Part shown: positions 2,032 through 24,610 of the stretch, piece after piece | Layout of the letters: every line of letters starts with the position of its first letter | Position numbering within the stretch: the first letter of the stretch is position 1 | Assembly: GCA_963836755.1 (NCBI GenBank) | Contig: CAWIKF010000002.1 | Span: 1,504,001-1,568,000 of the forward strand | Direction of reading: 5' to 3' | From: an uncultured Verrucomicrobiae bacterium | Lineage (GTDB): Bacteria > Verrucomicrobiota > Verrucomicrobiia > Chthoniobacterales > Chthoniobacteraceae | DNA: 64,000 nucleotides | Notes under the pieces: model-generated | Databases searched by the model: none | Told to the model about the DNA's origin: nothing | Seen by the model: the letters and a program-made list of their open reading frames with translations, nothing else | Program-made: the position numbers and the translations under genes

Positions 2032-2049
2032 ATTGGACTTTGGTCCCAT
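2032..2049. promoter_or_regulatory. 18-bp palindromic operator-like box ATTGGACTTTGGTCCCAT
   Basis: Intergenic, upstream of PLD gene; matches recurring motif. Confidence 0.7.
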
Positions 2050-2088
2050 CGACGCACGTGGCGATCGAGGACTTGGGCGCATCGAACA

Positions 2089-3711
2089 TCAGTGGGATGC
2101 GTGCGCTTTCAGAATTTGCAGCACGTCGGCGATCGCCTGCGGGTTCTGGTGCGCGCCGTGATTGGAGGGGACGATGTGCTCGCTCTTTGCACCGTCCATG
2201 TGCGAACTCCAATATGGGACGACGCCGTCGCTCGAGTTCGGCGAATCGCCACGGCCGCGGTCGCCAATGATGGTGTCGTAACGCACGCCGGGCGTGATCG
2301 GGAGCGTATTGACTGCTTTCACAAACCGGCTGTCGGGCGAAAGCGTATCCAGGCTGTTGGCGCGGCGTTTCGGCCTCAACTCTTTTTCGCGGACGCTCGT
2401 CAATTGCAGCATTTCTCGGCTCGCCTGCGATGCAACGCGCGCTGGCCGAATGATGCCGGCGACGAGGCGACCGAACCAGCCCCTCGCGAGATCCGCTCCT
2501 CGCAGCGGGGATGAGATGAAAATCACGCGACCGATTTCCGGCCGGTGGCGAAAATATAATTCGTCCTGAAAATATGCTCGTGTGTGCGGCGAGAGCGGAA
2601 CCTGATCGAGTGGCTTGCCGAAGATCTGCTTGCAAAGCTCATCGCCACTGTCGGTGATCAGAAGCCGGCTTATGCATCCGCCCATGCTGTGCCCGATGAC
2701 GACCATCGGCTTCGGCGCGGGGTAACGCTTTTCCACGGCGTCGAGTTCGTGGCGCAGGATGGCAGCGGAATACGGATAGGGATAGCCGCTCGGATAGCTG
2801 TAGAACCAAAACTGGTAATGCTTTCGGATCGCGGGATCGCCGCGGAGCTTGTTGATCATTGGCGTCCACGTGGCTTGCGAATCCATCAGCCCGTGAATCA
2901 CAAGCACGATAGTTTTGTCCGGATCGTAGGGTTGGAGCCGCTCGATGGCTGCAGTGTTCGCATATTTCTCCGGGTTTAAGACGCGCCAGATCTCGTATTT
3001 TTTCGGATCAGTTTGCTGGAGCATCACCGCCAGAGGCACAGTAAAATCTGCTGCGAGCGGGAAGGTGTGGCCTTTGAGCGTGACGGTTTCCTCGTCGAGC
3101 GGGTCGTGAAACGAGAGGACGCATCGACGACCCTCAAAGCGGGCGACCGCGGTCTCGCAGCGGAAGATGCGGGAGGGGATGAAGCTTTCTCGGCGGCCCT
3201 TGGTCATCGTATTGCGTTCCACCGCCACGAGCGGCGCGCCGACGCCGTCGCGCGTGGTGCGCTCGGTCACGTATTTGCCGTTGACGTCAAACTGATCGGC
3301 CGGCGTGAAATCAAAGAGCGCGGGGTTCCACTCCGGCCGCGGGTCGGGCAGATCCGAGAGCACATAATCGCCGTGATCGCTGGGGACCGTGAGCGGCTTC
3401 GTCCAGGCGTCGAGCTTTGATTTTTTAATGATCTCAAAGATCCGACCGAGAGCGAAATTATAGTCACGCTGGGCGGTGGCGCTTCCGAGATCGCGTGATG
3501 TAGTTTCGAGCGCCTCCACGCACTCGCCAAGCGCCGGAAGGGGATCGCTTCGTTCCCGCCGTGAAGCTTGAGTGATCTGCTTTTCCGCGGATGCAAGCGG
3601 TTCTGGGCCCGAAGGTCCTTGGAGCACCGGGCGCTTCGGCGTTACCTCCGCATACTGCGCACAACCGCCGAACACAATTGCCGCCGCCAGCGCACAAACA
3701 ATCGCGCGCAT
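2089..3711 (-). CDS. Alpha/beta-hydrolase (lipase/esterase-like) lipoprotein
   Basis: Lipobox-like FGGC, IHGLMDS oxyanion region, GHSMGG nucleophile elbow, SDGVVPYWSSH, C-terminal catalytic His; paralog of 22793-24454. Confidence 0.85.
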   Translation of the reverse strand: MRAIVCALAAAIVFGGCAQYAEVTPKRPVLQGPSGPEPLASAEKQITQASRRERSDPLPALGECVEALETTSRDLGSATAQRDYNFALGRIFEIIKKSKLDAWTKPLTVPSDHGDYVLSDLPDPRPEWNPALFDFTPADQFDVNGKYVTERTTRDGVGAPLVAVERNTMTKGRRESFIPSRIFRCETAVARFEGRRCVLSFHDPLDEETVTLKGHTFPLAADFTVPLAVMLQQTDPKKYEIWRVLNPEKYANTAAIERLQPYDPDKTIVLVIHGLMDSQATWTPMINKLRGDPAIRKHYQFWFYSYPSGYPYPYSAAILRHELDAVEKRYPAPKPMVVIGHSMGGCISRLLITDSGDELCKQIFGKPLDQVPLSPHTRAYFQDELYFRHRPEIGRVIFISSPLRGADLARGWFGRLVAGIIRPARVASQASREMLQLTSVREKELRPKRRANSLDTLSPDSRFVKAVNTLPITPGVRYDTIIGDRGRGDSPNSSDGVVPYWSSHMDGAKSEHIVPSNHGAHQNPQAIADVLQILKAHASH

Positions 3712-3719
3712 CCTGAGCT

Positions 3720-4718
3720 TTAGCTTTCCATCACCGGCACGTTGCGACGGCGCACCACCGGTTCATCAGTGATGATCACGGTCGTGCCGGGCGTGATGGC
3801 GTCGTAGACTTTTCCCGCGAATTCCGGGTTCACGTGCAGGCGCGAGGCAATGTCCTCGGGATCGGCGCGGCGGCCGCTGCTCGTCACGCTGAGCCAACGC
3901 CGCCCTTCGCGTCCCGGCGCGAGTGAGCTCCGGCGGCCTGTTGTGCCTTCGAGCAGCGAGAAAACCTGGTTGCCGAGCGCACCGTGCCCGCTGACTTCCA
4001 CCGCCGCGCGCCCAATTGGATTGCCGTTACGATAGACATAGATCGCTCTGTCTGCTGAGCTGACCACAATGGTGATCGGTCCGGTGGTGCTGCGCTCCGG
4101 ATTCCAGTCGTAGCCGTTCTTCGCGAGCGGACGCAGCATCTCGGGCTTGAAATCTTTTGGTGCAAGCACAAGACCGGGATTTGATGCGAAATGCGGGACC
4201 GGCACTTTGCCGTCACCGACGACTACCGTGCCGCCTTTCGCCGTCACGCCGAAGAGCAGCTTTGCAAAATCATAAGGCATCCGGATGCAACCGTGACTCG
4301 CCGGGTAGCCGGGCAAATTGCCCGAGTGCATCGCGATGCCGGTCCACGTGAGCCGCTGCATCATCGGCATTGGTGCATTATCGTATTTCTTCGAGCGGTG
4401 CGTCTGCTTTTTCTCAAGAATGGAAAATACACCACCCGGCGTGGCGTGACCCTTTGATCCTGTGCTCACCGTCGTGCGTCCGATGAGGATGCCATTGCGA
4501 TAGACGTGCATGACTTGCTCCGGCACGCTCACCAGCACTACGACCGGTCCATTCGGCGAGAGCTGCGGCTTCCACCAATATTCTCCGGGCCTGAGGCTGC
4601 CGGTGGGCTTGCCCGTAGGCGTGCCCTGTGTGTGGAACGACGGTTTTTCCATCGCCTGCGCGGTGGTGAACAACGTGAGCAAACTGATGTAAGTGGCGAA
4701 TGTGCGCAGGTGCTTCAT
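3720..4718 (-). CDS. L,D-transpeptidase (YkuD family)
   Basis: Signal peptide; VSTG, TPGGVFSILEK, HSGNLPGYPASHGCIRMP catalytic motif. Confidence 0.9.
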   Translation of the reverse strand: MKHLRTFATYISLLTLFTTAQAMEKPSFHTQGTPTGKPTGSLRPGEYWWKPQLSPNGPVVVLVSVPEQVMHVYRNGILIGRTTVSTGSKGHATPGGVFSILEKKQTHRSKKYDNAPMPMMQRLTWTGIAMHSGNLPGYPASHGCIRMPYDFAKLLFGVTAKGGTVVVGDGKVPVPHFASNPGLVLAPKDFKPEMLRPLAKNGYDWNPERSTTGPITIVVSSADRAIYVYRNGNPIGRAAVEVSGHGALGNQVFSLLEGTTGRRSSLAPGREGRRWLSVTSSGRRADPEDIASRLHVNPEFAGKVYDAITPGTTVIITDEPVVRRRNVPVMES

Positions 4719-4765: not shown

Positions 4766-4783
4766 ATAGGACGTTCGTCTCAT
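4766..4783. promoter_or_regulatory. 18-bp palindromic box ATAGGACGTTCGTCTCAT
   Basis: Intergenic, just upstream of L,D-transpeptidase start. Confidence 0.6.
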
Positions 4784-4814: not shown

Positions 4815-6095
4815 CTAATGCGTGCTCGAATCTCTCTTGCCCAGCGCGTCGGTGGTGACGGAGATGTGGCGAGCGGCCAACTCCTGAGCGAGGCGATCGG
4901 AAACTTTGCCATCAACCCAGAGAGCGAGTCCGTGAATGTCGGGATTACTATGCGCCAGCGCCGCAAAATCCTCGGCACGCCGTGCGGTGCGCTCTGCCCA
5001 AATCGCATAGTCGCATGAAAGCGGAACCACCAGCGCACCATCGCGATCCATCGCGCAGACGACTCCATTTTTGAGACTGATGGAACGCAGTGGCGTCGCG
5101 GTCTTGTTGTAGCGTGCCAGCAATTGTGCGAGGCGCTGGAAAAAGAACGCATCCTCGGAGGTGAGCGCACGGCAGGCTTGTGCGAGAAAAGTTGTCGGAT
5201 TGACGCCGATCGATGTAAGCGCTTCGGTGATGACCGTTTCGTTCACTGGAGAATACCACGGGTGCATGAGAAACGTGTCCGCATCGGGGCGCGAGACGCC
5301 AAGGGCGAAGAGCTTCTTGCGATTCATGATGCGAAGATCTTCGGGCGTGGAATTGATGAGCGTATCCTGCAGCGTCTGGTTCATGCCAATCACTGAGAGC
5401 GCGGCACCGGCGCCGCCGGTGGCTACTGAAGTCGCAGCGGAAACGATCAGCCCGCCGCCAGCCATGGCCTGCGCGGTGCTGGTGAGTTCGCGCTGCAATT
5501 CCTCATTGTTCGTGTAAGGGCTCACGCCGAGCTTCGCAGCGAGTTGCGCCTTCGCTTTGGTGGTGCCCGTAAAACCCTGCAACGCCCCGCCGCTCTCGGA
5601 TTTACTCGCGCCGCCCTTGAGTCCCTCTCCAATGCGGCCAAAAAAGCGAGACGCGCCTTTCGGAATGTTCTGGATTGTGCCGTAGGGGTCGCGCACTACC
5701 TCGGCGACGCTATCGACTTTTGCTCCCACGCTTTGCCCAAGCGCTTTTCGAAACTCGTCCGTTTTGCTCAGTCCGCGCAAATAATCGATCGCATAAATTT
5801 CGCGGATGCGCATCAGCAGCGAGGGCGTGCCGCTGACCTCCAAAACGCCGGAGGGCGAGTCGAGGAAATACGTGTTGTTGAAGCCGTCATTGACGGCGAG
5901 CGGACGAACCGTGTGCAGCGAGCCGTGCATCGAATCCTCCGGTGTAAAGTCTTTCGCCTGCACGTCTCCGCCGGTCTCGAAAGTTTTTTCAAATCTCCCG
6001 AGGAAATCCCGATCATCGGTCTGCGCGGAGGCGGGCGCCAGTGCTGCTGCGAGCAGCGCGAAGATTGATGTGGTGAGGAAGAGATGACGGTTCAT
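4815..6095 (-). CDS. Secreted hypothetical protein
   Basis: 426-aa ORF with signal peptide (ALAPASA/QT); no recognised catalytic motif. Confidence 0.75.
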   Translation of the reverse strand: MNRHLFLTTSIFALLAAALAPASAQTDDRDFLGRFEKTFETGGDVQAKDFTPEDSMHGSLHTVRPLAVNDGFNNTYFLDSPSGVLEVSGTPSLLMRIREIYAIDYLRGLSKTDEFRKALGQSVGAKVDSVAEVVRDPYGTIQNIPKGASRFFGRIGEGLKGGASKSESGGALQGFTGTTKAKAQLAAKLGVSPYTNNEELQRELTSTAQAMAGGGLIVSAATSVATGGAGAALSVIGMNQTLQDTLINSTPEDLRIMNRKKLFALGVSRPDADTFLMHPWYSPVNETVITEALTSIGVNPTTFLAQACRALTSEDAFFFQRLAQLLARYNKTATPLRSISLKNGVVCAMDRDGALVVPLSCDYAIWAERTARRAEDFAALAHSNPDIHGLALWVDGKVSDRLAQELAARHISVTTDALGKRDSSTH

Positions 6096-6164: not shown

Positions 6165-6182
6165 ATCGGACTTTGGTCCTAT
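6165..6182. promoter_or_regulatory. 18-bp palindromic box ATCGGACTTTGGTCCTAT
   Basis: Divergent promoter region between hypothetical gene and glgP. Confidence 0.75.
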
Positions 6183-6217: not shown

Positions 6218-6235
6218 GTAGGACCTTCGTCCGAT
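6218..6235. promoter_or_regulatory. 18-bp palindromic box GTAGGACCTTCGTCCGAT
   Basis: Second copy in the same divergent region, shortly upstream of glgP ATG. Confidence 0.72.
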
Positions 6236-6272: not shown

Positions 6273-8735
6273 ATGAACATTTCCAATTCTTCTGCCAGCT
6301 CTCTCCGGACCGGTGGAGCCGTGGCGGATCTCAAGCAGAGCTTCCTCGATAACCTTTTCTGCGCGCTCGGTCGTGCACCATTGGCCGCGACGCCGCACGA
6401 CGCTTACGTGGCGCTGGCGCTCACCGTGCGCGACCGCGTGCTAAACCGCGGCGTTCAAACGTTGGAAGCTTACGGAAAGCAGGACGCGAGAGCCGTGGCG
6501 TATCTTTCGGCAGAGTTCCTGCCCGGCCCTCACCTCGCCAACAATCTCCTCAGCCTCGGCATTACCGAACCGGCGCGACAGGCGATGAGCGAACTCGGGT
6601 TGGATCTCGACGAACTGATCGAACTGGAAGAAGAACCGGGCCTTGGCAATGGCGGACTGGGACGACTCGCGGCGTGCTACATGGACTCGCTTGCGTCGGT
6701 GGAGGTGCCGGCGGTCGGCTACGGAATTCGCTACGAGTTCGGGATTTTCGATCAAGTCATCCGCGATGGTTGGCAGGTCGAGATCACCGACAAATGGCTT
6801 CGGTCCGGCAATCCGTGGGAAGTCGCGAGGCCAGAGATCGCGTATGAAATCAAATTTGGCGGAGTCACGGAAACTGGGAACAACAAACGGGTGCGTTGGG
6901 TTCCGCAGACTGTCGTCAAGGGCATTGCCTACGACACGTCAATCCTTGGCTACCGCGTCGGCACATGCAATTGCTTGCGGCTTTGGAAAGCGGAGGCCGT
7001 CGAGTCGTTCGATTTCGCGGCGTTCAACCACGGCGACTATTACCGAGCCGTCGAAGACAAGGTGGCGTCCGAGAACATAACAAAGGTCCTTTACCCGAAC
7101 GATGAGGTCGAGCAGGGCAAGGCGCTGCGACTTCAACAGCAATTCTTTTTCGTCTCGTGTTCGCTCCAGGACATGATCCGCATCCATCTGCTGCTCGGGC
7201 GCTCGCTCGATTCTTTCCATGAAAAATGGGCGGTGCAGCTGAATGACACGCATCCTGCGCTGGCGGTGGCCGAGTTGATGCGGCTGCTGGTGGACGAGCA
7301 CGGCATGGGTTGGGACGCAGCCTGGGAAGTCACGCGTGCGACATGTGCCTACACGAATCACACCCTGCTGCCAGAGGCGCTCGAGAAATGGCCTGTGCCG
7401 CTTTTCTGCCGGCTCCTGCCGCGGCATCTCGAGATCGTCTATGAGATCAACCGGCGCTTCGTCGAAGAAGTGCGCGCCGCTTTTCCCGATGACGACGCCC
7501 GCCTCGAGCGGATGTCGCTCATTGACGAGAGCGGGCCTCGCTATGTCCGTATGGCGAATCTCGCCACTGCCGGCAGCCATCATGTGAATGGAGTCGCGCA
7601 GCTCCACTCCGACTTGCTGAAACGGACCGTTCTGCGCGATTTCGCCGATCTTTGGCCCGAGAAATTCTGCAACGTCACGAATGGCGTCACGCCGCGCCGA
7701 TTCATCGCGCTCAGCAATCCCGCGCTCACGCAGCTCATCACCAGCCACATCGGCGACGGATGGTTACAAAATCTCGATCTGTTGCGGAAACTGGAGCCGC
7801 TGGCCGACGACGCCGCCTTTCAGCAGCAATGGCGCGACGTGAAGCTCGGTGCGAAGCGCAGCCTCGCCGCGCTCATCAAGCAGCGCACGGGCATCGAGGT
7901 CAACCCGGAGTCGCTGTTCGATGTGCAGGTCAAGCGGCTGCACGAATACAAGCGCCAGCATTTGAACGTGCTGCACATCCTCACGCTGTTTCTGCGCCTG
8001 AAACGTGACCCGAACGCCGACGTTCCGGCGCGCACTTTCCTCTTTGGCGCGAAGGCCGCTCCCGGCTACTTCATGGCGAAGCTCATTATCAAGCTAATCA
8101 ATTCTGTCGCTGAGGTGCTCAACAATGACCCCGATGTGCGTGGTCGGCTGAAGGTTGTTTTCTTCCCCGACTACAACGTGAAAAACGCGCAGCACATTTT
8201 TCCCGCAGCGGATCTCTCGGAGCAAATTTCTACCGCTGGCAAGGAAGCATCCGGCACCGGCAACATGAAGCTGTCGATGAATGGGTCGCTGACCATCGGC
8301 ACACTCGATGGCGCCAATGTCGAGATTCGCGAGGAAGTCGGAGCAGAAAACTTTTTTCTCTTCGGACTTCCGGAGGATGAGGTTGTAAAGTTGAAAGCTC
8401 GCGGCTATCGACCGCGCGATTACTACGAAGAGAATGTCACACTGCGCGAGGTGATCGACTTCATCGCGAGTGGCAGTCTGAGCCGCAGCGACGCGGAGCT
8501 GTTTCGTCCGATCGTGGAAAATCTCCTCAATCACGACCCGTTCCTGCTGCTCGCAGATTATCAAAGTTACATCGACGCGCAGGAACGCGTGAGCACGATC
8601 TGGCGGGACTCCCGCGCTTGGACGCGGCAGTCAATTCTCAACTCAGCTCGCATGGGAAAATTCTCCAGCGACCGCTCTATCCGCGATTACTGCGACCGCG
8701 TCTGGAAAATCCAGCCGGCGCCGCTTTCGCAGTAG
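6273..8735 (+). CDS. glgP: Glycogen/starch phosphorylase
   Basis: GLGNGGLGRLAAC, QLNDTHP, KRLHEYKRQ, EASGTGNMK PLP-binding motif. Confidence 0.97.
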   Translation: MNISNSSASSLRTGGAVADLKQSFLDNLFCALGRAPLAATPHDAYVALALTVRDRVLNRGVQTLEAYGKQDARAVAYLSAEFLPGPHLANNLLSLGITEPARQAMSELGLDLDELIELEEEPGLGNGGLGRLAACYMDSLASVEVPAVGYGIRYEFGIFDQVIRDGWQVEITDKWLRSGNPWEVARPEIAYEIKFGGVTETGNNKRVRWVPQTVVKGIAYDTSILGYRVGTCNCLRLWKAEAVESFDFAAFNHGDYYRAVEDKVASENITKVLYPNDEVEQGKALRLQQQFFFVSCSLQDMIRIHLLLGRSLDSFHEKWAVQLNDTHPALAVAELMRLLVDEHGMGWDAAWEVTRATCAYTNHTLLPEALEKWPVPLFCRLLPRHLEIVYEINRRFVEEVRAAFPDDDARLERMSLIDESGPRYVRMANLATAGSHHVNGVAQLHSDLLKRTVLRDFADLWPEKFCNVTNGVTPRRFIALSNPALTQLITSHIGDGWLQNLDLLRKLEPLADDAAFQQQWRDVKLGAKRSLAALIKQRTGIEVNPESLFDVQVKRLHEYKRQHLNVLHILTLFLRLKRDPNADVPARTFLFGAKAAPGYFMAKLIIKLINSVAEVLNNDPDVRGRLKVVFFPDYNVKNAQHIFPAADLSEQISTAGKEASGTGNMKLSMNGSLTIGTLDGANVEIREEVGAENFFLFGLPEDEVVKLKARGYRPRDYYEENVTLREVIDFIASGSLSRSDAELFRPIVENLLNHDPFLLLADYQSYIDAQERVSTIWRDSRAWTRQSILNSARMGKFSSDRSIRDYCDRVWKIQPAPLSQ

Positions 8736-8762
8736 CGCGCCGGATGATGGCAAAATCAGCAA

Positions 8763-9197
8763 ATGGTTGCAAACCTCCTCATCGCCTGGTGCCTGCTCGC
8801 GCTGTGCGTCGCGATCCATGCGACGGGATTGACGGTGGGTTTCAACTGGCTCCGGCGTCGGACCCCGCCAGCCGAAGGGCAAATCTGGCCGGCGACGTGG
8901 CTGCTCATCCAGATCGCGGGCTGGACGCTGTTCATACATCTCATCGAAATCGCCGTGTGGGCGTTCGCCTATGTCGGGTTGCGCGCATTGCCGGACCTCA
9001 CGAGCGCACTTTACTTCAGCGCCGTGACCTATACCACCACGGGCTACGGCGATCTCGTGCTGCCGCAGGATTGGCGCCTCGTCGGCGCAATCGAGGCGCT
9101 CACTGGCATCCTGATGTGCGGCCTTTCGGCGGGAATGTTTTTTGCGGTTTTCTCGAAGGTCTTTCGACTGAACATAGTGAGTCCGGAAATTAAATGA
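8763..9197 (+). CDS. Potassium-channel-like small membrane protein (Ion_trans_2)
   Basis: YFSAVTYTTTGYGD selectivity-filter motif between TM helices. Confidence 0.88.
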   Translation: MVANLLIAWCLLALCVAIHATGLTVGFNWLRRRTPPAEGQIWPATWLLIQIAGWTLFIHLIEIAVWAFAYVGLRALPDLTSALYFSAVTYTTTGYGDLVLPQDWRLVGAIEALTGILMCGLSAGMFFAVFSKVFRLNIVSPEIK

Positions 9198-9200
9198 GTC

Positions 9201-10295
9201 ATGCAAGTGCTGCTCACAGAAATCCGCCGCAACCCACTTCTCTGGCTGCTTGCCTTTGTCCCGGTGGTGTTCGCCGCGGAACACTTTTGGCCGGAGGCGC
9301 ACACGTTGCTTTTCCTGCTGTCGGTGCTCGCTATCGTGCCGCTGGCGGCATTGCTCAGCCACGCCACGGAATCCGTCGCGAGCAAGACGGGCGACGCGGT
9401 CGGCGGCTTGCTCAATGCCACGCTAGGCAATCTCACGGAACTCGTCATCGCGCTGGCCGCCTTGCGTGCCGGTCAATACATGCTGGTGAAGGCTTCAGTC
9501 GCTGGCGCGATTGTCACCAATACGCTGTTCATGCTCGGAGCCTCGTTTCTCTTGGGCGGACTCAAACATCACACACAAGAGTTCAACCGCGTCTCCGCCC
9601 GGATGCAAGCGGGCCTGCTTTTTCTCGCGACGGTGGCACTGCTTGTTCCATCGGCTATTTCAAAAGTCGATTCAGCCAAGTTTGCCGGTGTGACCCAAAC
9701 CCTGAGCGTTGGCCTCGCCGTATTGCTGATCGCAGTTTATGGGCTTGGCATGCTTTTTTCCCTGAAGACACATCGCGAGCTCTTCACCAGTGCCGAGCAC
9801 GGCGAGGAAGGCGAAGAGCCGTGGCCCATCGGGCTGGCGCTTGTAGTGCTGGCGGTCGTCACCGTGCTTGTGGCTCTGGTGAGCGAAATTTTCGTCGAGT
9901 CCGTGCAGGAGGCGGCGAAGGTGTTTGGAATGACTCCCGCGTTCGTGGGCTTCATCGTCGTCGCGCTCGTTGGCGGCGCGGCAGAAATGGCCTCCGCTTT
10001 CTCCGGAGCGCGTAAAAATCGCTTGGATCTGAGCGTCGGCATCGCGCTGGGCAGTGCGTCGCAAATCGCGCTTTTTGTGGCGCCCGCGCTTGTGCTTCTC
10101 AGCTATGTGCTCGGTCCGACGCCGATGGACCTGCGGTTCTGGCCGGGTGCCGTGGTGATGATGCTTCTTGCCACGGTGACCGCCTCCTTCGTCAGCGGTA
10201 GCGGACGCTCGACGTGGTTTACCGGCGTGCTCGTGCTGACCGTTTACCTCATCTTCGCCATGACGCTTTACGTCCTGCCGCCCCAAGGACAATGA
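9201..10295 (+). CDS. cax: Ca2+/H+ antiporter (CaCA/CAX family)
   Basis: GGLLNATLGNLTEL and GAAE repeats, LSVGIALGSASQIALFV, many TM segments. Confidence 0.9.
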   Translation: MQVLLTEIRRNPLLWLLAFVPVVFAAEHFWPEAHTLLFLLSVLAIVPLAALLSHATESVASKTGDAVGGLLNATLGNLTELVIALAALRAGQYMLVKASVAGAIVTNTLFMLGASFLLGGLKHHTQEFNRVSARMQAGLLFLATVALLVPSAISKVDSAKFAGVTQTLSVGLAVLLIAVYGLGMLFSLKTHRELFTSAEHGEEGEEPWPIGLALVVLAVVTVLVALVSEIFVESVQEAAKVFGMTPAFVGFIVVALVGGAAEMASAFSGARKNRLDLSVGIALGSASQIALFVAPALVLLSYVLGPTPMDLRFWPGAVVMMLLATVTASFVSGSGRSTWFTGVLVLTVYLIFAMTLYVLPPQGQ

Positions 10296-10326
10296 CCGCA
10301 TTTTTAACCTCAAATCCTCACCACCC

Positions 10327-11332
10327 ATGCCTACCATATTGACCGTTGTTTTCGACACGAAACGCTTCGACCGCGAAGCTCTCGAAGGGGCGTCCACCGG
10401 CAGCGACGTCGAATGGCGTTTTATGGACTGCCGGCTCTCGGTGGAGACCGCGGCGGCCGCGACAGGTGCGCAGGCTGTCTGCACATTCGTGAATGACCGC
10501 GTGGACCGCGCCTGTGTCGAAGCGCTTGGAAAGCTCGGCGTGCGGCACGTCGCCCTGCGGTGCGCGGGATTCAACAGCGTCGACCTCGCCGCCACTAAAG
10601 ATCTCGGCATCACCGTCACGCGCGTGCCCGCATATTCGCCTCACGCGGTGGCCGAGCACGCCGTGGCGCTGCTGCTCGCGCTCAACCGCAAAATTCCCGC
10701 GCGCCAACAACCGTGTCCACGACCTGAACTTCTCGCTGAGCGGCCTCGTCGGTTTTGACTTGAACGGCAAGACCGCGGGCATTTTCGGCACGGGAAAAAT
10801 CGGCCGCATCGCTGCGCAAATCCTGCGCGGATTTGGCATGCGGGTGCTGGCATACGACCCGTATCCGTCGTCCGAGTGGGCGCAGCAGTTTGGAGTGGAA
10901 TATATCGAGCCGCAGACGCTCGCGCGCGAGAGCGATGTCATCTCGCTGCACACTCCGCTGACCCCCGAAACGCGGCATATCATCAACTCGCGAACCCTGA
11001 ACCTGATGAAGCCGGGCGCGGTGCTGATCAACGTGAGCCGCGGCGCGCTGATCGACACCAAGGCGCTGATCGAGGCGCTGAAATCTGGACGCCTCGGCGG
11101 CGTCGCACTCGATGTTTACGAGGAAGAGGAAGGTGTATTTTTCGAGGACCTCTCCGGCCAAATCCTCCACGACGATGAACTCGCCCGGCTGCTTACTTTC
11201 CCGAACGTCCTCATCACCGCCCACCAAGCGTTCCTCACCCACGAAGCCTTGAGCGAGATCGCCCGCGTGACAGTTGCAAATCTCACCGCCCTTGGAAAAG
11301 CCGAACCATTCCTCGAAGGCACCGCGCTGTAA
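10327..11332 (+). CDS. ldhA: D-lactate dehydrogenase (2-hydroxyacid dehydrogenase), +1 frameshift near 10697
   Basis: ALRCAGFNSVD, RVPAYSPHAVAEH in ORF 10327-10758; GTGKIG, INVSRG, LDVYEEE, ITAHQAF in ORF to 11332; extra C in AAAATTCCCGCGCGCC. Confidence 0.88.
11258..11332 (+). repeat. Copy 1 of ~75-bp degenerate direct repeat (ldhA 3' end)
   Basis: ATCGCCCGCGTGACAGTTGCAAATCTCACCGCCCTTGGAAAAGCCGAACCATTCCTCGAAGGCAC...TAA. Confidence 0.85.
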
Positions 11333-12474: not shown

Positions 12475-12492
12475 GTAAGACCAAGGTCCGAT
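12475..12492. promoter_or_regulatory. 18-bp palindromic box GTAAGACCAAGGTCCGAT
   Basis: Upstream of hypothetical-glgX unit. Confidence 0.7.
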
Positions 12493-12601: not shown

Positions 12602-12934
12602 ATGCCTTCCGAAAATTTCAACATGGACGAGCTCACCGAGGAGCGCCGCAAAGCACTCGCGGCGAGTATTCGCACGATCAGTGTCGACGAATTGAATACC
12701 CTCGGAAGAGAGATCTTTCCAAATTTCGATCACCCGTGGCACACCGCCTTTTTCGACTTCCTCGCGGAGAACTCCGGCGCCACGTTCCATCACGCGACGG
12801 CAGAGGACGGCATCCACGTCATTTATTGCGGTGCTAAGGACAAAGGCATTTGGTTTATACCGGGACGCGGAAAGGGGCCGCTGCAAACGAAGGGGCTGGC
12901 GATCATGAAAGAACTCGCCGCGGGCGCGGCGTGA
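12602..12934 (+). CDS. Hypothetical protein (~110 aa)
   Basis: ATG 12602, MPSENFNMDELTEERRKAL...KGIWFIPG; fills space before glgX. Confidence 0.7.
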   Translation: MPSENFNMDELTEERRKALAASIRTISVDELNTLGREIFPNFDHPWHTAFFDFLAENSGATFHHATAEDGIHVIYCGAKDKGIWFIPGRGKGPLQTKGLAIMKELAAGAA

Positions 12935-12964
12935 CGCTGGCGCGATTGCGTCCAACGTCCGATC

Positions 12965-15475: not shown

Positions 15476-15493
15476 ATAAGACCAAGGTCCGAT
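15476..15493. promoter_or_regulatory. 18-bp palindromic box ATAAGACCAAGGTCCGAT
   Basis: Upstream of fbaA. Confidence 0.72.
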
Positions 15494-15548: not shown

Positions 15549-16574
15549 ATGCCTGTCGCCGACTACAAAACTTACTGCAAAATTCTCGACCGCGCCCGCG
15601 CCGGCCGCTTCGCGCTGCCCGCCGTCAACGTCACCTCACTCACCACCGCCAACGCCGTCTTGCGCGGCCTCGCCGAGAGCAAGAGCGACGGCATCATCCA
15701 AATTTCCACGGGCGGCGGCGCGTTTGCATCGGGCTCGGCGCTGAAGGACATGGCGCTCGGCGCGATTGCGATCGCGGAGCACGTGCATCGCGCGGCGGCG
15801 CGTTACAACATCTACGTCGCGCTGCACACCGACCATTGTTTGAAAGACAAGCTTGACAAATTTGTCCTGCCGCTCGTCGAGGAAACGGAGAAGCGCCGCG
15901 CGGCGGGCCGACCCAATCTTTTCAACTGCCACATGTTCGATGGGAGCAATCTCTCGTTGCAGGAGAACATCCAAATTTCCGCAAAGCTGCTCGAACGCTT
16001 TAAGAAAAACGATCTCATCCTCGAAATCGAAACGGGCGCGGTGGGCGGCGAGGAAGATGACGTCGTCGGTGAAAAGGGCGCAAAACTTTATACCACTCCC
16101 GAGGACACGCTCGAAGTCGCGCGGGAGCTGAATCCAATCAGCGGCCGCTACTTGCTCGCGGCGACTTTTGGCAACGTCCACGGCGTTTACAAACCGGGCC
16201 ACGTGAAGCTAAAGCCGAGCGTGCTGAAGGCGTGTGATGATGCCGTCGCAAAGGCGCATGGAGAGGATGCGCGCTTCGATTTTGTATTCCACGGCGGCTC
16301 GGGATCAACGCTGGCGGAGATTCACGAATCACTCGACTACGGCGTGGTGAAGATGAACGTCGATACCGACATGCAGTATTCATTCACGCGTGCAGTCGCG
16401 GGACACATGTTTAAAAACTACGACGGCGTTCTGAAGGTGGACGGCGAGGTCGGGAACAAGAAAGCCTATGATCCGCGCGCTTATCTCGCCCTCGCTGAGG
16501 CGTCGATGGCGGAACGGGTGAAGCAGGCGGTGAGCGATCTGCGCGGCACGGGGACGACGATGTTTGCGGCGTAA
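15549..16574 (+). CDS. fbaA: Class II fructose-bisphosphate aldolase
   Basis: ALHTDHC, HMFDGS, VGGEED, FGNVHGVYKPG, VFHGGSG, KMNVDTD. Confidence 0.96.
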   Translation: MPVADYKTYCKILDRARAGRFALPAVNVTSLTTANAVLRGLAESKSDGIIQISTGGGAFASGSALKDMALGAIAIAEHVHRAAARYNIYVALHTDHCLKDKLDKFVLPLVEETEKRRAAGRPNLFNCHMFDGSNLSLQENIQISAKLLERFKKNDLILEIETGAVGGEEDDVVGEKGAKLYTTPEDTLEVARELNPISGRYLLAATFGNVHGVYKPGHVKLKPSVLKACDDAVAKAHGEDARFDFVFHGGSGSTLAEIHESLDYGVVKMNVDTDMQYSFTRAVAGHMFKNYDGVLKVDGEVGNKKAYDPRAYLALAEASMAERVKQAVSDLRGTGTTMFAA

Positions 16575-16598
16575 GTTGACGCGAAACAGCAGCGTCCT

Positions 16599-16616
16599 AT
16601 CCGACCTTGGTCCCAT
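16599..16616. promoter_or_regulatory. 18-bp palindromic box ATCCGACCTTGGTCCCAT
   Basis: Upstream of eno-gap-pyk. Confidence 0.7.
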
Positions 16617-16671
16617 TCACTGCGACTCCCGAACTGCGGCAGGCTCCCCTAGTCCAACAGCTTTCTCGTAA

Positions 16672-19067
<2,396 letters not shown>

Positions 19068-19107
19068 CAGCGCGTCACTCTCGCCCAAACCTAGAGATCC
19101 AATCACC

Positions 19108-20544
19108 ATGAACGCGGCGCTTCCCGACCACAAAACGAAGATTGTCGCAACGATCGGACCGGCTTCGGAATCGCCGGAGATGCTCGAGCGCCTCATCCGA
19201 GCAGGGCTGAACGTCGCGCGGCTAAACTTTTCGCACGGCGAATTTTCCAAACACGCAGAGGTGGTCAAACGCATTCGCGCGGCGGCGCAGGCCACAGGCC
19301 GGCGCGTCGCGATCATGGCCGATCTGCCGGGGCCGAAAATGCGCGTTGGAAAGGTTTCGCCGGAGCCAATCTTGCTCGTGCCCGGGGAAATGTTTACGCT
19401 CACGAATGAAGAAATCGTCGGCGATGCGCAGCGCGTTTCGATGAGCTTTGAGCCTCTGCCGCGTGTGGTAAAGCCAGACGACCGGCTTTTTCTCAATGAC
19501 GGACTCCTCCAACTGATCGTCAAAAGCGTCGAGGGCAACGACGTTCATTGCGTGGTTGCGGTTGGCGGGGAGTTGAGGTCAAAAAAGGGACTCAATCTGC
19601 CGGGTATCGACCTCGGCATCAGCGCGTTCACAGAGCGCGATCGCGAATGTCTCGAATTTGCGCTCGACGCCGGCGTGGATGCGGTGAGTCAGTCTTTTGT
19701 CGAGCGCGCCCGCGACATCGAGGCAGTGCGCGAGGCGGCGACGAAGCTCGGGCGGGTGCCGTTCATTATCGCAAAAATCGAGCGATCGGATGCGCTCAAG
19801 TATTACGACGAAATCCTCGCGGTGGCCGATGGCATCATGGTTGCGCGCGGCGATCTCGGCGTGGAGGTGCCGATCGAGGCGATCGCGCAGACGCAGAAGC
19901 AGCTCATCGCGAAAGCAAACCTCGCGAGCAAGCCCGTCATCACGGCCACGCAAATGCTCGAATCAATGGTCAGCAGCCGCCTGCCCACGCGCGCCGAGGC
20001 AACCGACGTCGCCAATGCGATCCTCGACGGCACCGATTGCGTGATGCTCTCCGGCGAATCGGCGATGGGTAAATTTCCCGAGGAAGCAGTGACGATGCTG
20101 GCAAAGATTGCAGCTTACGCCGAGACGCATCGCGTGCGCGCCGCCCTCGCCGCGCGCCGCGCGTTTTTCGCACAAGACACGCCGCCGACGCCGGATAGCA
20201 GGATCGCATCGCTCGTGGAATACACCTTCGACACCGTGCCTTGCGACCTGGCGCTGGTGCCGACGCATAGCGGCAAAACCGCGCGCGTCATTTCCGGGCG
20301 CAAGCCGCCAGTGTGGATCCTCTCTCCCAGCAGGGACGCCGCTGTTTGCCAGGGGCTCGCGTTTTCCTACGGTGTTTATCCAGTCGATCTCGCGGATGAA
20401 CCGGACGATTGGCGGGAGTTCAACACACGCATGTGCTCTGAGCACGGCATTGATGCGAGCCGTGTCATTCTCGTCGCCGGCCCCTCCGCGCGAAATCCGC
20501 GGGCAAATCACCGCATCGAGCTCATGCAACTCTCCCCGCGGTAA
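19108..20544 (+). CDS. pyk: Pyruvate kinase
   Basis: KTKIVATIGPAS, ARLNFSHG, IIAKIE, MVARGDLGVE, ATQMLESM; likely start ATG 19108. Confidence 0.96.
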   Translation: MNAALPDHKTKIVATIGPASESPEMLERLIRAGLNVARLNFSHGEFSKHAEVVKRIRAAAQATGRRVAIMADLPGPKMRVGKVSPEPILLVPGEMFTLTNEEIVGDAQRVSMSFEPLPRVVKPDDRLFLNDGLLQLIVKSVEGNDVHCVVAVGGELRSKKGLNLPGIDLGISAFTERDRECLEFALDAGVDAVSQSFVERARDIEAVREAATKLGRVPFIIAKIERSDALKYYDEILAVADGIMVARGDLGVEVPIEAIAQTQKQLIAKANLASKPVITATQMLESMVSSRLPTRAEATDVANAILDGTDCVMLSGESAMGKFPEEAVTMLAKIAAYAETHRVRAALAARRAFFAQDTPPTPDSRIASLVEYTFDTVPCDLALVPTHSGKTARVISGRKPPVWILSPSRDAAVCQGLAFSYGVYPVDLADEPDDWREFNTRMCSEHGIDASRVILVAGPSARNPRANHRIELMQLSPR

Positions 20545-20749: not shown

Positions 20750-20916
20750 TTTCCAGCAACCGCCTTCTTCACGACCGACATCGTCGCTCGTTTGGGCGCC
20801 TCAAAGCTGCTAGAGTTCTGTTTCGTGGCGAGCCGACCAACGTGGGTCCCATTACTGCGGTGATTTTCGATGACACCTGTGGAAACCTCATCAACTTAGT
20901 TCAACCTGCGGCCTAA
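20750..20916 (+). pseudogene. C-terminal fragment of VOC/glyoxalase gene (cassette remnant)
   Basis: FPATAFFTTDI...VLFRGEPTNVGPITAVIFDDTCGNLINLVQPAA*; its TAA lies in the first box of an attC. Confidence 0.7.
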
Positions 20917-20970
20917 CCATGCGCTGCAGCGAACCGGCTCCGCCTGTAGCTGATCTTGTTCTCGTTAGGC
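20911..20970 (+). mobile_element. Integron attC site (59-base element)
   Basis: GCCTAAC...GTTAGGC complementary RYYYAAC/GTTRRRY ends, 60 bp, internal GCTGCAG/CTGTAGC dyad. Confidence 0.8.
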
Positions 20971-21298
20971 GCTTTTCCACGCACGAGCCAAGCAACACGC
21001 ACCCAAAATGGAGCAAGCTTCCGAGACTGAACTATTTCGCCGGCGTATCGAGGTCGTCCTCGATTTCATTTCTGACGACATCTTCCCGCTTATGCTTCGC
21101 TGGCTGGTTATTGCTCTCCTCTTCATCGGCCTGGCCAGGCAGCGGATGGGTGAGCTTAAAACGTCTCGCCAGCTTCGATGAAGGTCGTCGATCTCGATCA
21201 CGCAGCCATCGGCTCGAACTCAGGAGCCTTTTCCCTCTTCGCGCGATGCACACCGGCTCGATTTTGTCGTGCGCTACGATCTCGTGCGCTGACGCGAA

Positions 21299-22345
21299 TT
21301 AAAATCCGGCCCGTCCTTCGCGGATGCGGTGGGAAAAATCAGGATCGGCGTCCGCGGATTTTGCCGCGTGATTGATGCGCGCTTGTTCTTTCAATTCGGG
21401 GAAACTCAACCCGCCGGGGGCGAGGGCGTGGCGTTCGAAAAGCAGCTCGTCCATTTTGCCATTGAGAAGGATTCGCCAATCCCATGGCGTCCGCTTCGCG
21501 GCGGCGCGCTGAGTGCGGATGCTCGTCGTGCAGTTACTCGTCGCCGCGTTATACCAGCACGGCTTGGCATGCATGGCGTTGAGCGCGCCAAGGTAATCCT
21601 CGAATCGTTCGCGCGCCTGTGCCGGAGCCATGTCGAGCCGGTAGAGGTAAACGTCCTCGCCCTTGCGGTAGTTGGTGCGCACGCGGATGACATCGCGTTC
21701 GTTGGCGACGATGTAAATCAACTCATATTGCCGGTAGAGACCGCCGACTGCCGAATAGCTCTCGCCGATTTCTTTGCGTGTCTCGATTGAAAAGCATACT
21801 GGCGGCGCGTCGGCAAACTGGAAGCTCGCGACGGGATGCGCGATGTAAGCCGAACCCCAATAATTGATCGCGAGGTCGAGGCCGGTGATCTGCGAAAGTC
21901 GCACCGTGCGCGTTTCCCAGCGCGGAGTGAAATCGGTTTCGGTGCGGTAATCGAAATTGCGGACATTGTGCAGCACGACAGTGTCGCCGCTGATTTCGGC
22001 CCAAGCTGTTCGATCCACGTCCGGCTGCCACCGGCGATCCTGGCTCGGCTGCAGCGTGAACCACCAGACGAGCACCAGCGCAAACAGGACGATGAGCGCG
22101 CCGAGCTTTCTGAATGGGCCGCGGACGAAAATACCAGCCGCGGCCACAGCGCACAAAAACGCCACGGCGACCGCGCTTTTCCAAAACGGAGAATCGTAAT
22201 ACAGCGCGCCCACCGCCCAGGCATCGCAACCAAGCGCTATCGGCCAGGCGAGCCAGAGCGCGATGGTGCGAAAGGCGCGGCGCGGCCCGTAGCAGCGGTG
22301 CTTATCGCGGCCACCAGCGCTGTCATCCGCTGCCGTGCTCTCCAT
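21299..22345 (-). CDS. DUF4105 (Lnb N-terminal periplasmic domain-like) membrane protein
   Basis: N-terminal TMs; NVRNFDYRTETDF, IAHPVASF, SIETRKE, YELIYI..ERDVI, WYNAATSNCTT. Confidence 0.85.
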   Translation of the reverse strand: MESTAADDSAGGRDKHRCYGPRRAFRTIALWLAWPIALGCDAWAVGALYYDSPFWKSAVAVAFLCAVAAAGIFVRGPFRKLGALIVLFALVLVWWFTLQPSQDRRWQPDVDRTAWAEISGDTVVLHNVRNFDYRTETDFTPRWETRTVRLSQITGLDLAINYWGSAYIAHPVASFQFADAPPVCFSIETRKEIGESYSAVGGLYRQYELIYIVANERDVIRVRTNYRKGEDVYLYRLDMAPAQARERFEDYLGALNAMHAKPCWYNAATSNCTTSIRTQRAAAKRTPWDWRILLNGKMDELLFERHALAPGGLSFPELKEQARINHAAKSADADPDFSHRIREGRAGF

Positions 22346-22770
22346 TACTCGGGATCGAGAAGCGCCAGCGGGACTTCCAGCCATTCCGCTGCCGCGGCCC
22401 GCTCTCGGAATGTGCGCACTTGGATCGACGCGTCTTCCATGAGCGCCTCATACATCCGCGCGATACCGAATCCCGCCACCGTGCTGGAGAAAAAGGCCGA
22501 TTTCGCCGGCTGAACGACGTCCCGCCGACGGTCGGCGATTTTGAAGACATGTCCGATCGTCAGCCGGATTCTGGTGAGCTCGCTGAAATCTGCATAGCGG
22601 TGAAACGGACGTTCATTAAAAAGTTCCTCCGTCTCGATGACGGCGACGATCGCGTCTGCAACGGCGTCGGTAAGTTCTCCGCGCGGATGCCATGTAAAGA
22701 GCCGGGCTCCCGGGTGAAAGCGCGTGTGGTCAAAGAGCCGTAGGATATCAGCAACTGGAATCTCGTTCAT
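22345..22770 (-). CDS. Hypothetical protein (STAS/SpoIIAA-like fold possible)
   Basis: 141-aa ORF, FGIARMYE..VRTF..AAEWL ending; translationally coupled to DUF4105 gene. Confidence 0.65.
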   Translation of the reverse strand: MNEIPVADILRLFDHTRFHPGARLFTWHPRGELTDAVADAIVAVIETEELFNERPFHRYADFSELTRIRLTIGHVFKIADRRRDVVQPAKSAFFSSTVAGFGIARMYEALMEDASIQVRTFRERAAAAEWLEVPLALLDPE

Positions 22771-22792
22771 TTCTTGCGTGACGGCTGAAACG

Positions 22793-24454
22793 CTACCGCG
22801 CAGCGTGGAGCGTGAGGATGCGCTCTACCTCGGCGATTGCCTCGAGGTTTTGATGCGCGCTGTGACCGGACGGGACAATCAACTCGGATTTCGCCCCCGG
22901 CATGTGACTGCTCCAGTAGGGGACGACGCCGTCGGACATTGTCGGGTTCGTCTGGTCTTTGTTCCCGTCCTTTCCTCGATCGCCGCAGATGACGTGATAC
23001 GGAATCCCCGGTGTGATCGGGATGGTATTGATCGCTTTCACAAAGCGATTGTTCGGCGCAAGCGTGTCGACGCTGTTCGGGATGCGTTTGAGCTTCAGGT
23101 CGTCAGCTCCAAACGCCGCCGCGTCGATCGCTTCGGCACCCACTTTGAGCAAAGTCGTCGGCGAGCGCACGAGCATTGAGCCGATCCGGCCGAGCCAGTT
23201 GCTCGCGAGATTGCTGCCTCGCAGCGGCGAGGAGATGAAAATCACGCGTCCCACTTCCGGCCTGTGCTGAAAGATCAGCGCGTCGGTCAGAAGCTTCCGG
23301 TTTTCGGGCGAAAGTTTTGTTTGCTCCGGAGTTTTTTTGAAAATCGCCGTCCAAAGTTTGTCCCCGGTGTCGGTGATGAGCAGCCGGCTGATACAGCCGC
23401 CCATGCTGTGCCCGATGACAACAATTTTACGCCGCAGCGGGAAACGTTTTTCGATCGCATCCAACTGGTGACGCAGGATGAGAGCGGAGTAAGGATAAGG
23501 ATAGCCGCTCGGGTAGCTGTAAAACCAGAATTGGTAATTGCGGCGAATTCGCTCATCGCCGCGCAGATGATTGAGCATCGGCGCCCAAGTCGCGGGCGAG
23601 TCCATCAACCCATGGATGACAAGGACGACGGTCTTATCGGGATCGTAGGGCTGAAGCCGCGCGATGCGTGCGGTCTCGGCATATTTCTCCGGACGCAGCA
23701 GGCGCGAGAGTTCCTGCTTTTTCGGGTTCATGGACTTCAGCATCACAGCCAGCGGCACGGTGAAATCCGCCGCGAGCGCATAAGACCTATTGCCCAGGCG
23801 GACGGTCTCGACATCCAGCGGATCCTCGAAATCAATCACGGCGCGGCGTCCCTCAAAACGAATGATCGCTGTGACACCGTAGAAGATTCGCTTGGTGGTA
23901 AAGTCCCGGTCAGCTCCTGCGTAATCGGCGCGCGCAACGGCAACCAACGGTGCGCCGATCCCTTCCCTTCGAACTCTCTCTTTCACATAGGTGCCGCGCA
24001 CGTCAAATTGATCAGCAGGGGTGAAATCGTAAAGCGCCGGGTTTCGCTGCGGGCGCGGGTCGGGCTTGTGCGCCAGCACGAATTCCCCACCGGCGGATGG
24101 CACGCGCAGCGGTTGCGACCACGGCTCGAGCTTCGCGCTTTTGAGCACGGTGAAAACGCGAGCAACAGCAAAGTTGTAGCGCTCACGCGCGGCTATGTCC
24201 GCGGGATTTGTCTTAAGCTGTCGCGCCGCCGAATCGGCGGCTGCCAGAAATTCACCGAGCGCTGCCCGCGGCTCACGGCGCTCCTCGCGCATGGCGATTT
24301 CGAAGCCCTGGGTTTCCTTCTGCGCAGTCGCCGCATCGACCAAGCCGCGGACGGGGCGAAAGGTCGGTTTCTTTTCGGAGATCGTTGCATATTGCGCGCA
24401 GCCGGCGAGAAGCAGAGCTGCTGCGGCTACGAGACCGAGCTTGGAGAGGTTCAT
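22793..24454 (-). CDS. Alpha/beta-hydrolase (lipase-like) lipoprotein, paralog of 2089-3711
   Basis: LLAGC lipobox, IHGLMDS, GHSMGG, SDGVVPYWSSH; shares YSYPSGYPYPYS with paralog. Confidence 0.87.
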   Translation of the reverse strand: MNLSKLGLVAAAALLLAGCAQYATISEKKPTFRPVRGLVDAATAQKETQGFEIAMREERREPRAALGEFLAAADSAARQLKTNPADIAARERYNFAVARVFTVLKSAKLEPWSQPLRVPSAGGEFVLAHKPDPRPQRNPALYDFTPADQFDVRGTYVKERVRREGIGAPLVAVARADYAGADRDFTTKRIFYGVTAIIRFEGRRAVIDFEDPLDVETVRLGNRSYALAADFTVPLAVMLKSMNPKKQELSRLLRPEKYAETARIARLQPYDPDKTVVLVIHGLMDSPATWAPMLNHLRGDERIRRNYQFWFYSYPSGYPYPYSALILRHQLDAIEKRFPLRRKIVVIGHSMGGCISRLLITDTGDKLWTAIFKKTPEQTKLSPENRKLLTDALIFQHRPEVGRVIFISSPLRGSNLASNWLGRIGSMLVRSPTTLLKVGAEAIDAAAFGADDLKLKRIPNSVDTLAPNNRFVKAINTIPITPGIPYHVICGDRGKDGNKDQTNPTMSDGVVPYWSSHMPGAKSELIVPSGHSAHQNLEAIAEVERILTLHAAR

Positions 24455-24529
24455 GAAATCCAGGTTTGGGCGCTTGAGTGACGCGACGCCAGTTGAATTG
24501 GATATTGGACGACTCAGACGGGCGTGCAC

Positions 24530-24547
24530 ATAGGACCTTTGTCCTAT
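24530..24547. promoter_or_regulatory. 18-bp palindromic box ATAGGACCTTTGTCCTAT
   Basis: Perfect 7-bp arms ATAGGAC/GTCCTAT; upstream of hydrolase operon. Confidence 0.78.
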
Positions 24548-24592
24548 AGCAAACCGCCGTCGCCGGATTCGCGGAGTCAGCTTGATCGCGGA

Positions 24593-24610
24593 ATAGGATC
24601 AAGGTCCGAT
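24593..24610. promoter_or_regulatory. 18-bp palindromic box ATAGGATCAAGGTCCGAT
   Basis: Second copy 63 bp from the previous one. Confidence 0.68.

Follow-up and report, generated by a model that had tools for sequence, protein, structure and literature searches.

What reads the nine palindromes that stand between the genes of one 64-kb stretch of DNA from an uncultured Verrucomicrobiae bacterium (G000:C2:1504001-1568000, referred to below as the window), and what would their reader switch on? An initial annotation took them for a DosR-like hypoxia and fermentation regulon, confined to 23 kb and controlled by a NarL-type regulator encoded outside the window. Here, we report a 44.7-kb block, reaching well beyond the window, in which almost all transcription units have the palindrome RTNRGACYWWRGTCYNAY in front of them. 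This palindrome is most probably the binding site of the block's own FixJ/StyR-type regulator, which would act as a phosphorylated dimer on sigma70-type promoters and activate a spare programme of fermentation and ion balance.

With up to two mismatches allowed, ATNGGACNNNNGTCCNAT is matched at nine places in the window and at no others, at a chance mean of 1.83, a number reached in none of 100 shuffles of the window, and the bare perfect core GGAC-N4-GTCC occurs four times where 0.74 would be expected by chance (equalled in 1/100 shuffles). All nine palindromes are intergenic with a centre-to-start distance of 46–147 bases, and the part of the window to the right of ssrA holds no match to ATNGGACNNNNGTCCNAT at the same tolerance; the initial annotation was thus right about the positions, their intergenic placement and the empty right-hand side. 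The consensus is asymmetric and is better written RTNRGACYWWRGTCYNAY. A scoring matrix was built solely from the nine window sites, the check that had been proposed for them, and was run over the 3.18-Mb genome. Eighteen places scored at least 21 bits, namely the nine window sites, eight more at C2:1484875-1502086 and one at C1:131900, and the next-best score was 17.8 bits. Eight of the nine new top-tier sites were accordingly recovered within 19 kb to the left of the window. The limit of 23 kb could not be upheld: 17 sites lie in a block of 44.7 kb, bounded by tRNA-Val (C2:1484250-1484321) and the 3' end of ssrA, which continues 19 kb beyond the window's left edge with eight of these sites. 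Two weak genome matches, C1:686976 (14.1 bits) and C1:470578 (11.2 bits), were dropped after inspection. The sole strong site outside the block, C1:131900 (L003:7901), faces a type I polyketide synthase gene that is split into two frames, and an asparagine-synthase-like gene is divergent from it.

In its left part, 10 kb from the window, the block encodes a protein of receiver and GerE/LuxR helix-turn-helix (HTH) domains, P0001, which has a site 144 bases upstream of its own start. The sites, the site before the regulator's own gene, and a triplet of regulator, lone receiver and sensor kinase are thus found together in one block. By sequence comparison P0001 is a response regulator of the FixJ/StyR subfamily, closest to StyR, FixJ and TtrR and with a HisKA partner. 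Its closest solved relatives are StyR (1yio, E 2e-45) and FixJ (5xso, 1e-35), with DevR at 4e-13, and its best NCBIfam model is FixJ (1e-53; NarL 1e-20), although the FixJ match of 181.6 bits stays under the cut-off of 255. No other FixJ-type protein was found in the genome (next HTH-bearing match 5e-17), which also encodes at least six distant NarL/LuxR-type regulators. The closest relatives of P0001 are from Verrucomicrobiota, and one kinase homologue is named Chthoniobacteraceae. In a quick tree of 89 rows, in which near-duplicate Acidobacteria loci and all but eight distant rows were left out and DosR was absent, P0001 fell among FixJ-type proteins, apart from the actinobacterial NarL-type, in a 97-supported clade of nine of which eight have a site within 3 kb. 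A regulator of the NarL/FixJ superfamily is therefore encoded outside the window, as had been predicted, but it is of the FixJ/StyR subfamily and not of the DosR type.

Across genomes the motif follows this regulator. Among 40 relatives, scanned for a P0001 match at E <=1e-30 and for the exact pattern RTNRGACYWWNGTCYNAY, 12 had the former and six the latter, and all four relatives with at least two exact sites carry a FixJ-type regulator. An independent sample of the phylum comprised 250 genomes (regulator at E 1e-34, 12 candidates scored per genome), with the motif pattern in 20 and the regulator in 12. The motif was present in 6/12 genomes with the regulator versus 14/238 without (Fisher p 8e-5, although kin are not independent and p-values therefore overstate the association), and in five of the six genomes with both, a site lies within 2.3 kb of the regulator gene. 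When loci were fetched and compared, with 10 overlapping loci skipped, a site of at least 17 bits was found within 3 kb of 19/31 regulators with lysine at position 175 of the recognition helix, as in P0001, versus 1/67 others. The association extends to Betaproteobacteria. The plasmid NC_018696 of Paraburkholderia phenoliruptrix has five sites in a 22-kb block beside a regulator with the EKT helix of P0001, and this block holds ldh, a DASS symporter, glgP, glgX, DUF3300/DUF2950, an AspT-like antiporter and a cation:proton antiporter; one or two sites each were seen in Eleftheria, Paraburkholderia PREW-6R and L071. The DUF3300 cluster of C. metallidurans and the glgP-glgX genes of P. caribensis are target-type genes without the regulator and likewise without a site. 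In a proteobacterial order sample of 120 genomes, two sites occurred together in only one, at 1.9 and 2.4 kb from the EKT-helix regulator of that genome, and five single matches were at control level. Judged by this co-occurrence and by the helix match described below, the regulator would bind the inverted repeat, and would presumably do so in a phosphorylation-dependent manner.

A second large block was seen in G043:C16 (L164-L166, L037), where about 65 kb hold at least 14 sites at >=16 bits among genes for glgP, pckA, two whole phospholipase D-family (PLD) proteins, YkuD, an AspT-like protein, a Na+/H+ exchanger, allantoin degradation and urea transport.

The recognition helix offers a possible basis for the specificity of the box. 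Lys175, Lys178 and Val179 of P0001 align with positions 179, 182 and 183 of DosR, where Lys179, Lys182 and Asn183 are the base-contacting residues (PMC4082495); the expectation that the motif would lie near a regulator with DosR-like helix residues was borne out by the site before P0001 and by the two lysines, though not at the position of Asn183. The helix EKTVKxHR is common to P0001 and EL222, the LOV-HTH activator of Erythrobacter litoralis, and its EKTVK part is shared by P0001 with both EL222 and DosR. The measured consensus of EL222, RGNCYWWRGNCY (PMC10521638), is fitted exactly by 9/17 cores of the block. We then searched for the scaffold RT...ACYWWRGT...AY with at most one mismatch and with positions -7 to -5 free. 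Beside Lys175 regulators, 72/72 half-sites had G at -5, versus 1/20 beside Gln175 regulators; the lone Glu175 case had C at this position, and beside the Ile, Ser, Arg or Val175 types almost nothing was found (3/45 regulators). Lys175 would thus take the G at -5 when the regulator reads its site, as both the cross-genome co-occurrence and the helix match to EL222 and DosR suggest.

Variant boxes on the same scaffold were noted beside Gln175 and Glu175 paralogues (L029, L033, L035, L055, L154, L043), for example ATTATACCAAGGTATAAT, ATAGTACCTAAGTACTAT, GTTGAACCAAGGTTCAAT and ATACCACCAAAGTGGGAT; in L029 and L055 they number 4–6 in 20 kb, where none is expected. Sinorhizobium plasmids (L134, L141, L144) carry EKT-helix regulators with the same sensor type, in the neighbourhood of aspT-aspD or arylsulfatase genes. 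Weaker variant boxes are found there in front of the kinase gene, in the gap that separates the regulator from the lone receiver, and in front of DUF3300 genes.

The likeness to DosR, from which the initial annotation had started, is genuine in the core and fails outside it. GGAC-N4-GTCC is common to both boxes, as are the equivalents of Lys179 and Lys182, that is two of three base-contacting residues, and DosRST/DevRS of Mycobacterium tuberculosis likewise drives an autoregulated, palindrome-based regulon (PMC4082495, PMC2275270). The outer bases differ: among 82 sites T stands at -8 in all and G at -7 in 10%, whereas the 20-bp DosR box TTSGGGACTWWAGTCCCSAA has S at -8 and G at -7 (PMC2275270). 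DosR is also a NarL-subfamily regulator served by heme GAF kinases and acting on universal stress protein (USP) genes; P0001 groups with FixJ/StyR, has Val in place of Asn183, is paired with a HisKA kinase with a periplasmic solute-binding sensor and no GAF, and has no USP targets. Identity with DosR/DevR was rejected on regulator subfamily, sensor type, outer bases and targets, and it is very improbable indeed that this lineage acquired a true DosR/DevR regulon. The shared core would reflect the shared helix lysines, which EL222 has too, and the resemblance to DosR is more readily taken for a common chemistry of the helix than for membership. The likeness to EL222 has its own bounds, since EL222 is a one-component light sensor with a 12-bp core, whereas the block's system has a receiver domain and a membrane kinase and its site extends over 18 bp, the outer RT...AY being invariant. 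StyR/TodT and FixJ, the closest solved relatives, resemble it in their HisKA kinases with PAS and in the triplet of kinase, regulator and lone receiver. In StyR, however, the equivalent of residue 175 is Val and not Lys, and the targets of the block are neither fixK/nifA nor genes of aromatic catabolism.

The placement of the sites points to activation. Across 17 genomes or records, 75/80 sites lie outside genes as called by a simple in-house gene caller, in agreement with the intergenic enrichment predicted by the initial annotation, and the distances from site to start codon have a floor at 41–47 bases with one exception at 28. Fifty-one sites have a gene on just one side; towards that gene their centre shows AA in 37 cases and TT in 6, and in the other 8 it reads TA. 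When 78 sites were oriented by this asymmetry alone, the -10-like hexamer YAnnnT was found 31 or 32 bases from the centre in 37, compared with 2.7 at other offsets (maximum 6); on the far side it occurred at 31/32 in 11, as divergent promoters would give. In this genome nAnnnT stands at 31/32 in 12/18 site-gene pairs at a background of 1.4. With a spacer of 17 bases, the -35 element (TAGACC, TTGGCG, TTCACT) starts on the last base of the site, and the centre of the site is near -43.5. This is the class II activator position for NarL-family proteins. The sites thus appear to sit in class II activator geometry, centred about 43.5 bases before the transcription start and overlapping the -35 element by a single base, the last of the site and the first of the element; the shortest start-codon distances would therefore mean leaderless or short-leader transcripts.

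Several observations weigh against the assignment of the box to P0001 or narrow its reach. At a loose threshold (>=14 bits) the genome has 22 matches, a count that 3/30 column-shuffled matrices also reached (mean 10.7), and the signal therefore rests on the high-score tier and on clustering. The genome G002 has one site and no FixJ-type regulator was found in it. Lys175 is not sufficient for a site: 12/31 Lys175 regulators, including those of Sinorhizobium and Alloyangia and FixJ-like proteins, have no 17-bit site within 3 kb, 3/4 further Lys175 proteins of the proteobacterial sample have none within 1.5 kb, and the EKT-helix regulators of Sinorhizobium have weaker variant boxes only. The site of L027 adjoins a Gly175 regulator, although Lys175 paralogues are encoded in that genome as well; two sites are present in G020, where only Gln175 regulators were found; and one 22-bit match lies inside an ntrC coding region (L093). 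The sensor type varies among relatives (periplasmic fold, membrane-only, PAS-GAF, FixL-like PAS), and one signal may therefore not hold for the whole family. Also, several genes of the block are broken (half of a PLD gene, a dcuA fragment, a frameshifted ldh), so that some of the output may no longer function here.

It is in this light that another reader has to be considered, by which the site would be a repressor operator or be bound by a different protein, for example of NarL type, the FixJ-type gene being merely a target. The distant NarL/LuxR-type regulators of the genome would provide candidates, the lone site of G002 would be accounted for, and some sites are just 43–56 bases from the start codon. 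We nevertheless consider this improbable, as in two phyla the motif goes with the FixJ-type protein and changes when the helix residue of that protein changes, and as the sites end at the -35 position and do not cover -10 or +1. Activation by P0001 is the reading retained below.

The genes behind the sites indicate what P0001 would control. The block's eno, gap, pyk and glgX are second copies, with 76, 85, 36 and 58% identity to genes elsewhere in the genome, and its pfk, fba, ppk2 and antiporter have other family members elsewhere. The housekeeping copies tested had no score >6.3 within 2 kb. No sequencing run was listed for window 15400-20600, which speaks neither for nor against the reading. 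Conservation of the motif upstream of orthologues, which the initial annotation had predicted, was observed for pfk and the 103-aa hypothetical (four genomes each), for ppk2, the sulP operon, YkuD and DUF3302-HlyD-OEP (three each) and for glgP, glgX and pyk (two each). Relatives add further targets, namely acetate kinase (AckA), PEP carboxykinase (PckA), aspartase (AspA) with DcuA and DcaP, AspT with an Orn/Lys/Arg decarboxylase, cardiolipin synthase, Na+/H+ and CPA2 antiporters, K+ channels and transport, and a phosphotransferase system (PTS) with a LamB porin. Judged by gene content, the target set is one of substrate-level ATP formation, proton and cation handling and envelope repair. The output would comprise ATP from glycogen breakdown, the second glycolysis set, lactate dehydrogenase and PPK2, joined in relatives by AckA, PckA and AspA-DcuA, together with proton/cation exchange and a remodelled envelope, all of which a cell would need once respiration fails or its medium turns acid. 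The programme switched on is probably one of fermentation or acid survival. Two other expected neighbours did not materialise: the best score within 2 kb of the six USP matches in the genome was <=6.0, and cydA was not found in this 96%-complete genome, leaving no cydAB for a site to accompany.

What sets off the kinase is the weakest step in the proposed mechanism. The kinase is a protein of 782 aa with one PAS_3 domain, HisKA and HATPase_c, and no GAF domain was found in it. The alignment-based prediction of its periplasmic part reached a pLDDT of 92.5 (the single-sequence fold was poor, pLDDT 48), and the best structural matches were the Trp/Tyr/Phe-binding ABC proteins 3lft, 3lkv and 6hni (E 8e-14 to 2e-12, 14–16% identity); among look-alike matches this part resembles PF04392. 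The kinase would thus carry an amino-acid-binding-protein-like fold outside the membrane, where a small ligand or pH, rather than a kinase-bound heme, is predicted to act. Residues 28-345 (kinase at L002:12309-14657) have no Pfam match and 1118 homologues at E <=1e-20, fused to HisKA kinases, HisKA_3 kinases and other outputs.

Judged by target content, low oxygen is a plausible trigger. The same regulator and geometry would then serve an anoxia-survival regulon like those of FixLJ or lxa, with low oxygen or redox state as the signal, and we give this slightly less than an even chance. It would suit the targets for substrate-level ATP and the anaerobic C4-dicarboxylate genes. An extra PAS with His at what we take to be the FixL-like position is present in 10/120 periplasmic-domain kinases and in the kinase beside the site cluster of G030, and the FixL tandem-PAS structure 8js5 was matched. 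The same His-PAS pattern was found neither in the block's kinase nor in any of the genome's six frames, and this kinase has neither a second PAS nor a GAF domain; the lack of USP and cyd targets also speaks against oxygen. No FNR/CRP was found in the genome (PF13545; the lone HTH_Crp_2 match is of DtxR type), which leaves room for another oxygen switch. FixLJ itself was rejected as an identity, since the kinase has no heme-type PAS, P0001 stays below the FixJ cut-off and the published FixJ site, TAAGTAATTTCCCTTA (PMC4999443), is unlike the box; FixJ-like proteins with an SPRTVEV helix form a separate branch of the tree and have no sites. A parallel is provided by the lxa locus of Burkholderia cenocepacia, likewise one block, with about 50 genes including energy-metabolism genes and 17 intergenic copies of one motif, although that motif is an FNR/Anr-like TGA-N6-TCA and that block is USP-rich (PMC3721108). 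An lxa/FNR-type regulon was rejected for the present block, whose motif is a different one and in which a loose FNR-like pattern was also unmatched.

Alternatively, acid or amino-acid availability may be the trigger. The Trp/Tyr/Phe-binding-like fold would read a ligand or protons and turn on decarboxylase/antiporter, ammonia-releasing, cation/proton exchange and cardiolipin genes, and ATP would come from glycolysis. The confidently predicted fold and the relatives' sites before AspT, Orn/Lys/Arg decarboxylase, AspA, the antiporters, K+ channels and cardiolipin synthase argue for this; on the other hand, the identity to liganded structures is too low for naming a ligand, regulators whose boxes differ are also served by this periplasmic domain (L033, L035, L064), and a full spare glycolysis with glycogen breakdown fits energy failure better than acid alone. 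We regard it as possible, with somewhat lower confidence than low oxygen, and the two triggers need not be mutually exclusive.

The features of the block are collected in Table 1. Gene names given to the neighbours of the palindromes by the initial annotation were correct, except that its PLD gene is a C-terminal half and that the D-lactate dehydrogenase is frameshifted.

Table 1. Features of the block and its putative operator sites. Coordinates are window positions unless prefixed with C2.
Feature	Coordinates	Strand	Remarks
Putative operator site	2032..2049	-	Faces PLD (cardiolipin-synthase-like) remnant; -10-like GATCGT 2008-2003
Putative operator site	4766..4783	-	Before L,D-transpeptidase and alpha/beta hydrolase operon
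Putative operator site	6165..6182	-	Before 426-aa secreted hypothetical; -10-like TAGGGT 6142-6137
Putative operator site	6218..6235	+	Before glgP operon; -10-like CAGGGT 6259-6264, ATG 6273
Putative operator site	12475..12492	+	Before 103-aa hypothetical (with site in 4 genomes) and glgX
Putative operator site	15476..15493	+	Before class II fructose-bisphosphate aldolase; -35-like TTGGCG begins on last base of site; -10-like AACTGT 15516-15521
Putative operator site	16599..16616	+	Before eno-gap-pyk; -10-like CAGGCT 16640-16645
Putative operator site	24530..24547	-	Before hydrolase-hypothetical-Lnb_N(DUF4105) operon; -10-like CAATAT 24507-24502
Putative operator site	24593..24610	-	Second, upstream, 63 bases from 24530; without -10-like hexamer at own spacing
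AspT/YidE-type antiporter, 5' part	1..964	-	557 aa; runs past left end of window
PLD-family gene, C-terminal half	1215..1988	-	Frame change near end
L,D-transpeptidase (3720-4718) and alpha/beta hydrolase (2089-3711)	2089..4718	-	One unit
426-aa hypothetical	4815..6095	-	Signal-peptide-like N-terminus
glgP, K+ channel pore, Ca2+/H+ exchanger, D-lactate dehydrogenase	6273..11332	+	D-lactate dehydrogenase frameshifted (10327-11332)
103-aa hypothetical and glgX	12623..15073	+	glgX is a second copy, 58% to C2:60616
fbaA, eno, gap, pyk	15549..20544	+	
Alpha/beta hydrolase, 141-aa hypothetical, Lnb_N/DUF4105 protein	21299..24454	-	Hydrolase 57% to 2089-3711
ssrA (tmRNA)	25032..25388	-	3' end is right boundary of block
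Response regulator P0001	C2:1493382-1494032	-	
Lone receiver	C2:1497913-1498290	-	
Sensor kinase	C2:1498309-1500657	-	

The left part of the block also holds pfk, ppk2, sulP, DUF3302-HlyD-OEP, the AspT-type antiporter and the dcuA fragment. Two genomes of the same genus have conserved the DNA to the left and right of the block, and the block itself was not found in these (91% complete and fragmented; in G002 the two flanks are on different contigs). The block abuts the 3' end of ssrA, but as neither a tyrosine integrase (PF00589) in the block nor an ssrA/att repeat at its left edge was found, a tmRNA-integrated genomic island was rejected.

Broken genes are seen at several places. The PLD is whole in a relative, where it is a two-domain protein of 500 aa. 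Frameshifted or truncated genes in the window comprise, besides the D-lactate dehydrogenase, an FAD oxidoreductase fragment (11340-12330), a symporter-like fragment (15073-15470) and an ABC ATPase (26462-27269), and to the left of it the dcuA fragment and a PAS/SpoIIE fragment (L002:2585-2869, 16255-17271). Single-base frameshifts could have arisen in assembly; the truncations have the appearance of decay. Just downstream of ssrA (window 24770-24995) lies an array of about ten degenerate 21-bp repeats, and similar arrays are found at window 45293-45580 and C2:1422520-1422760, one of which precedes tRNA-Phe. Short intergenic elements (L001:2156-2290, 6964-7095, 8233-8300 and 9844-9940; window 20900-20985) have many copies in the same-genus genomes G001 and G002.

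Neither the box nor the regulon was found described in the literature, where motifs given as logos or in supplements only (RegPrecise-type studies) and subscription journals could escape a search. The box, the gene set and the residue-base rule appear to be new, and the logic of a two-component activator with an autoregulated block is familiar. A wider reading, which we put forward tentatively and hold less likely than its opposite, is that of a patchily spread, cross-phylum regulon for fermentation and pH survival whose kinase would read an amino-acid-like outside ligand and not oxygen. Its regulators would share one 18-bp scaffold, RTnnnAC-YWWR-GTnnnAY, on which a single helix residue would set -5 (Lys for G; Gln for A/T/C; Glu for C, in one case) and link the family to EL222 and DosR. 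If true, this code of helix residue and base would assign boxes and regulons to orphan FixJ-type regulators, would explain how regulators as unrelated as DosR, EL222 and P0001 converge on GGAC-N4-GTCC, and would warn against naming such boxes DosR-like. For the Verrucomicrobiota, which are common but little studied in soil and freshwater, the assignment of the box to P0001 would, if correct, provide the regulator, the box, the promoter geometry and the gene set of an undescribed survival programme. The same module would then also be present on the rhizobial symbiosis plasmid of the cultured Paraburkholderia phenoliruptrix BR3459a and in the cultured Verrucomicrobium sp. BvORR034, and would hence be open to testing.

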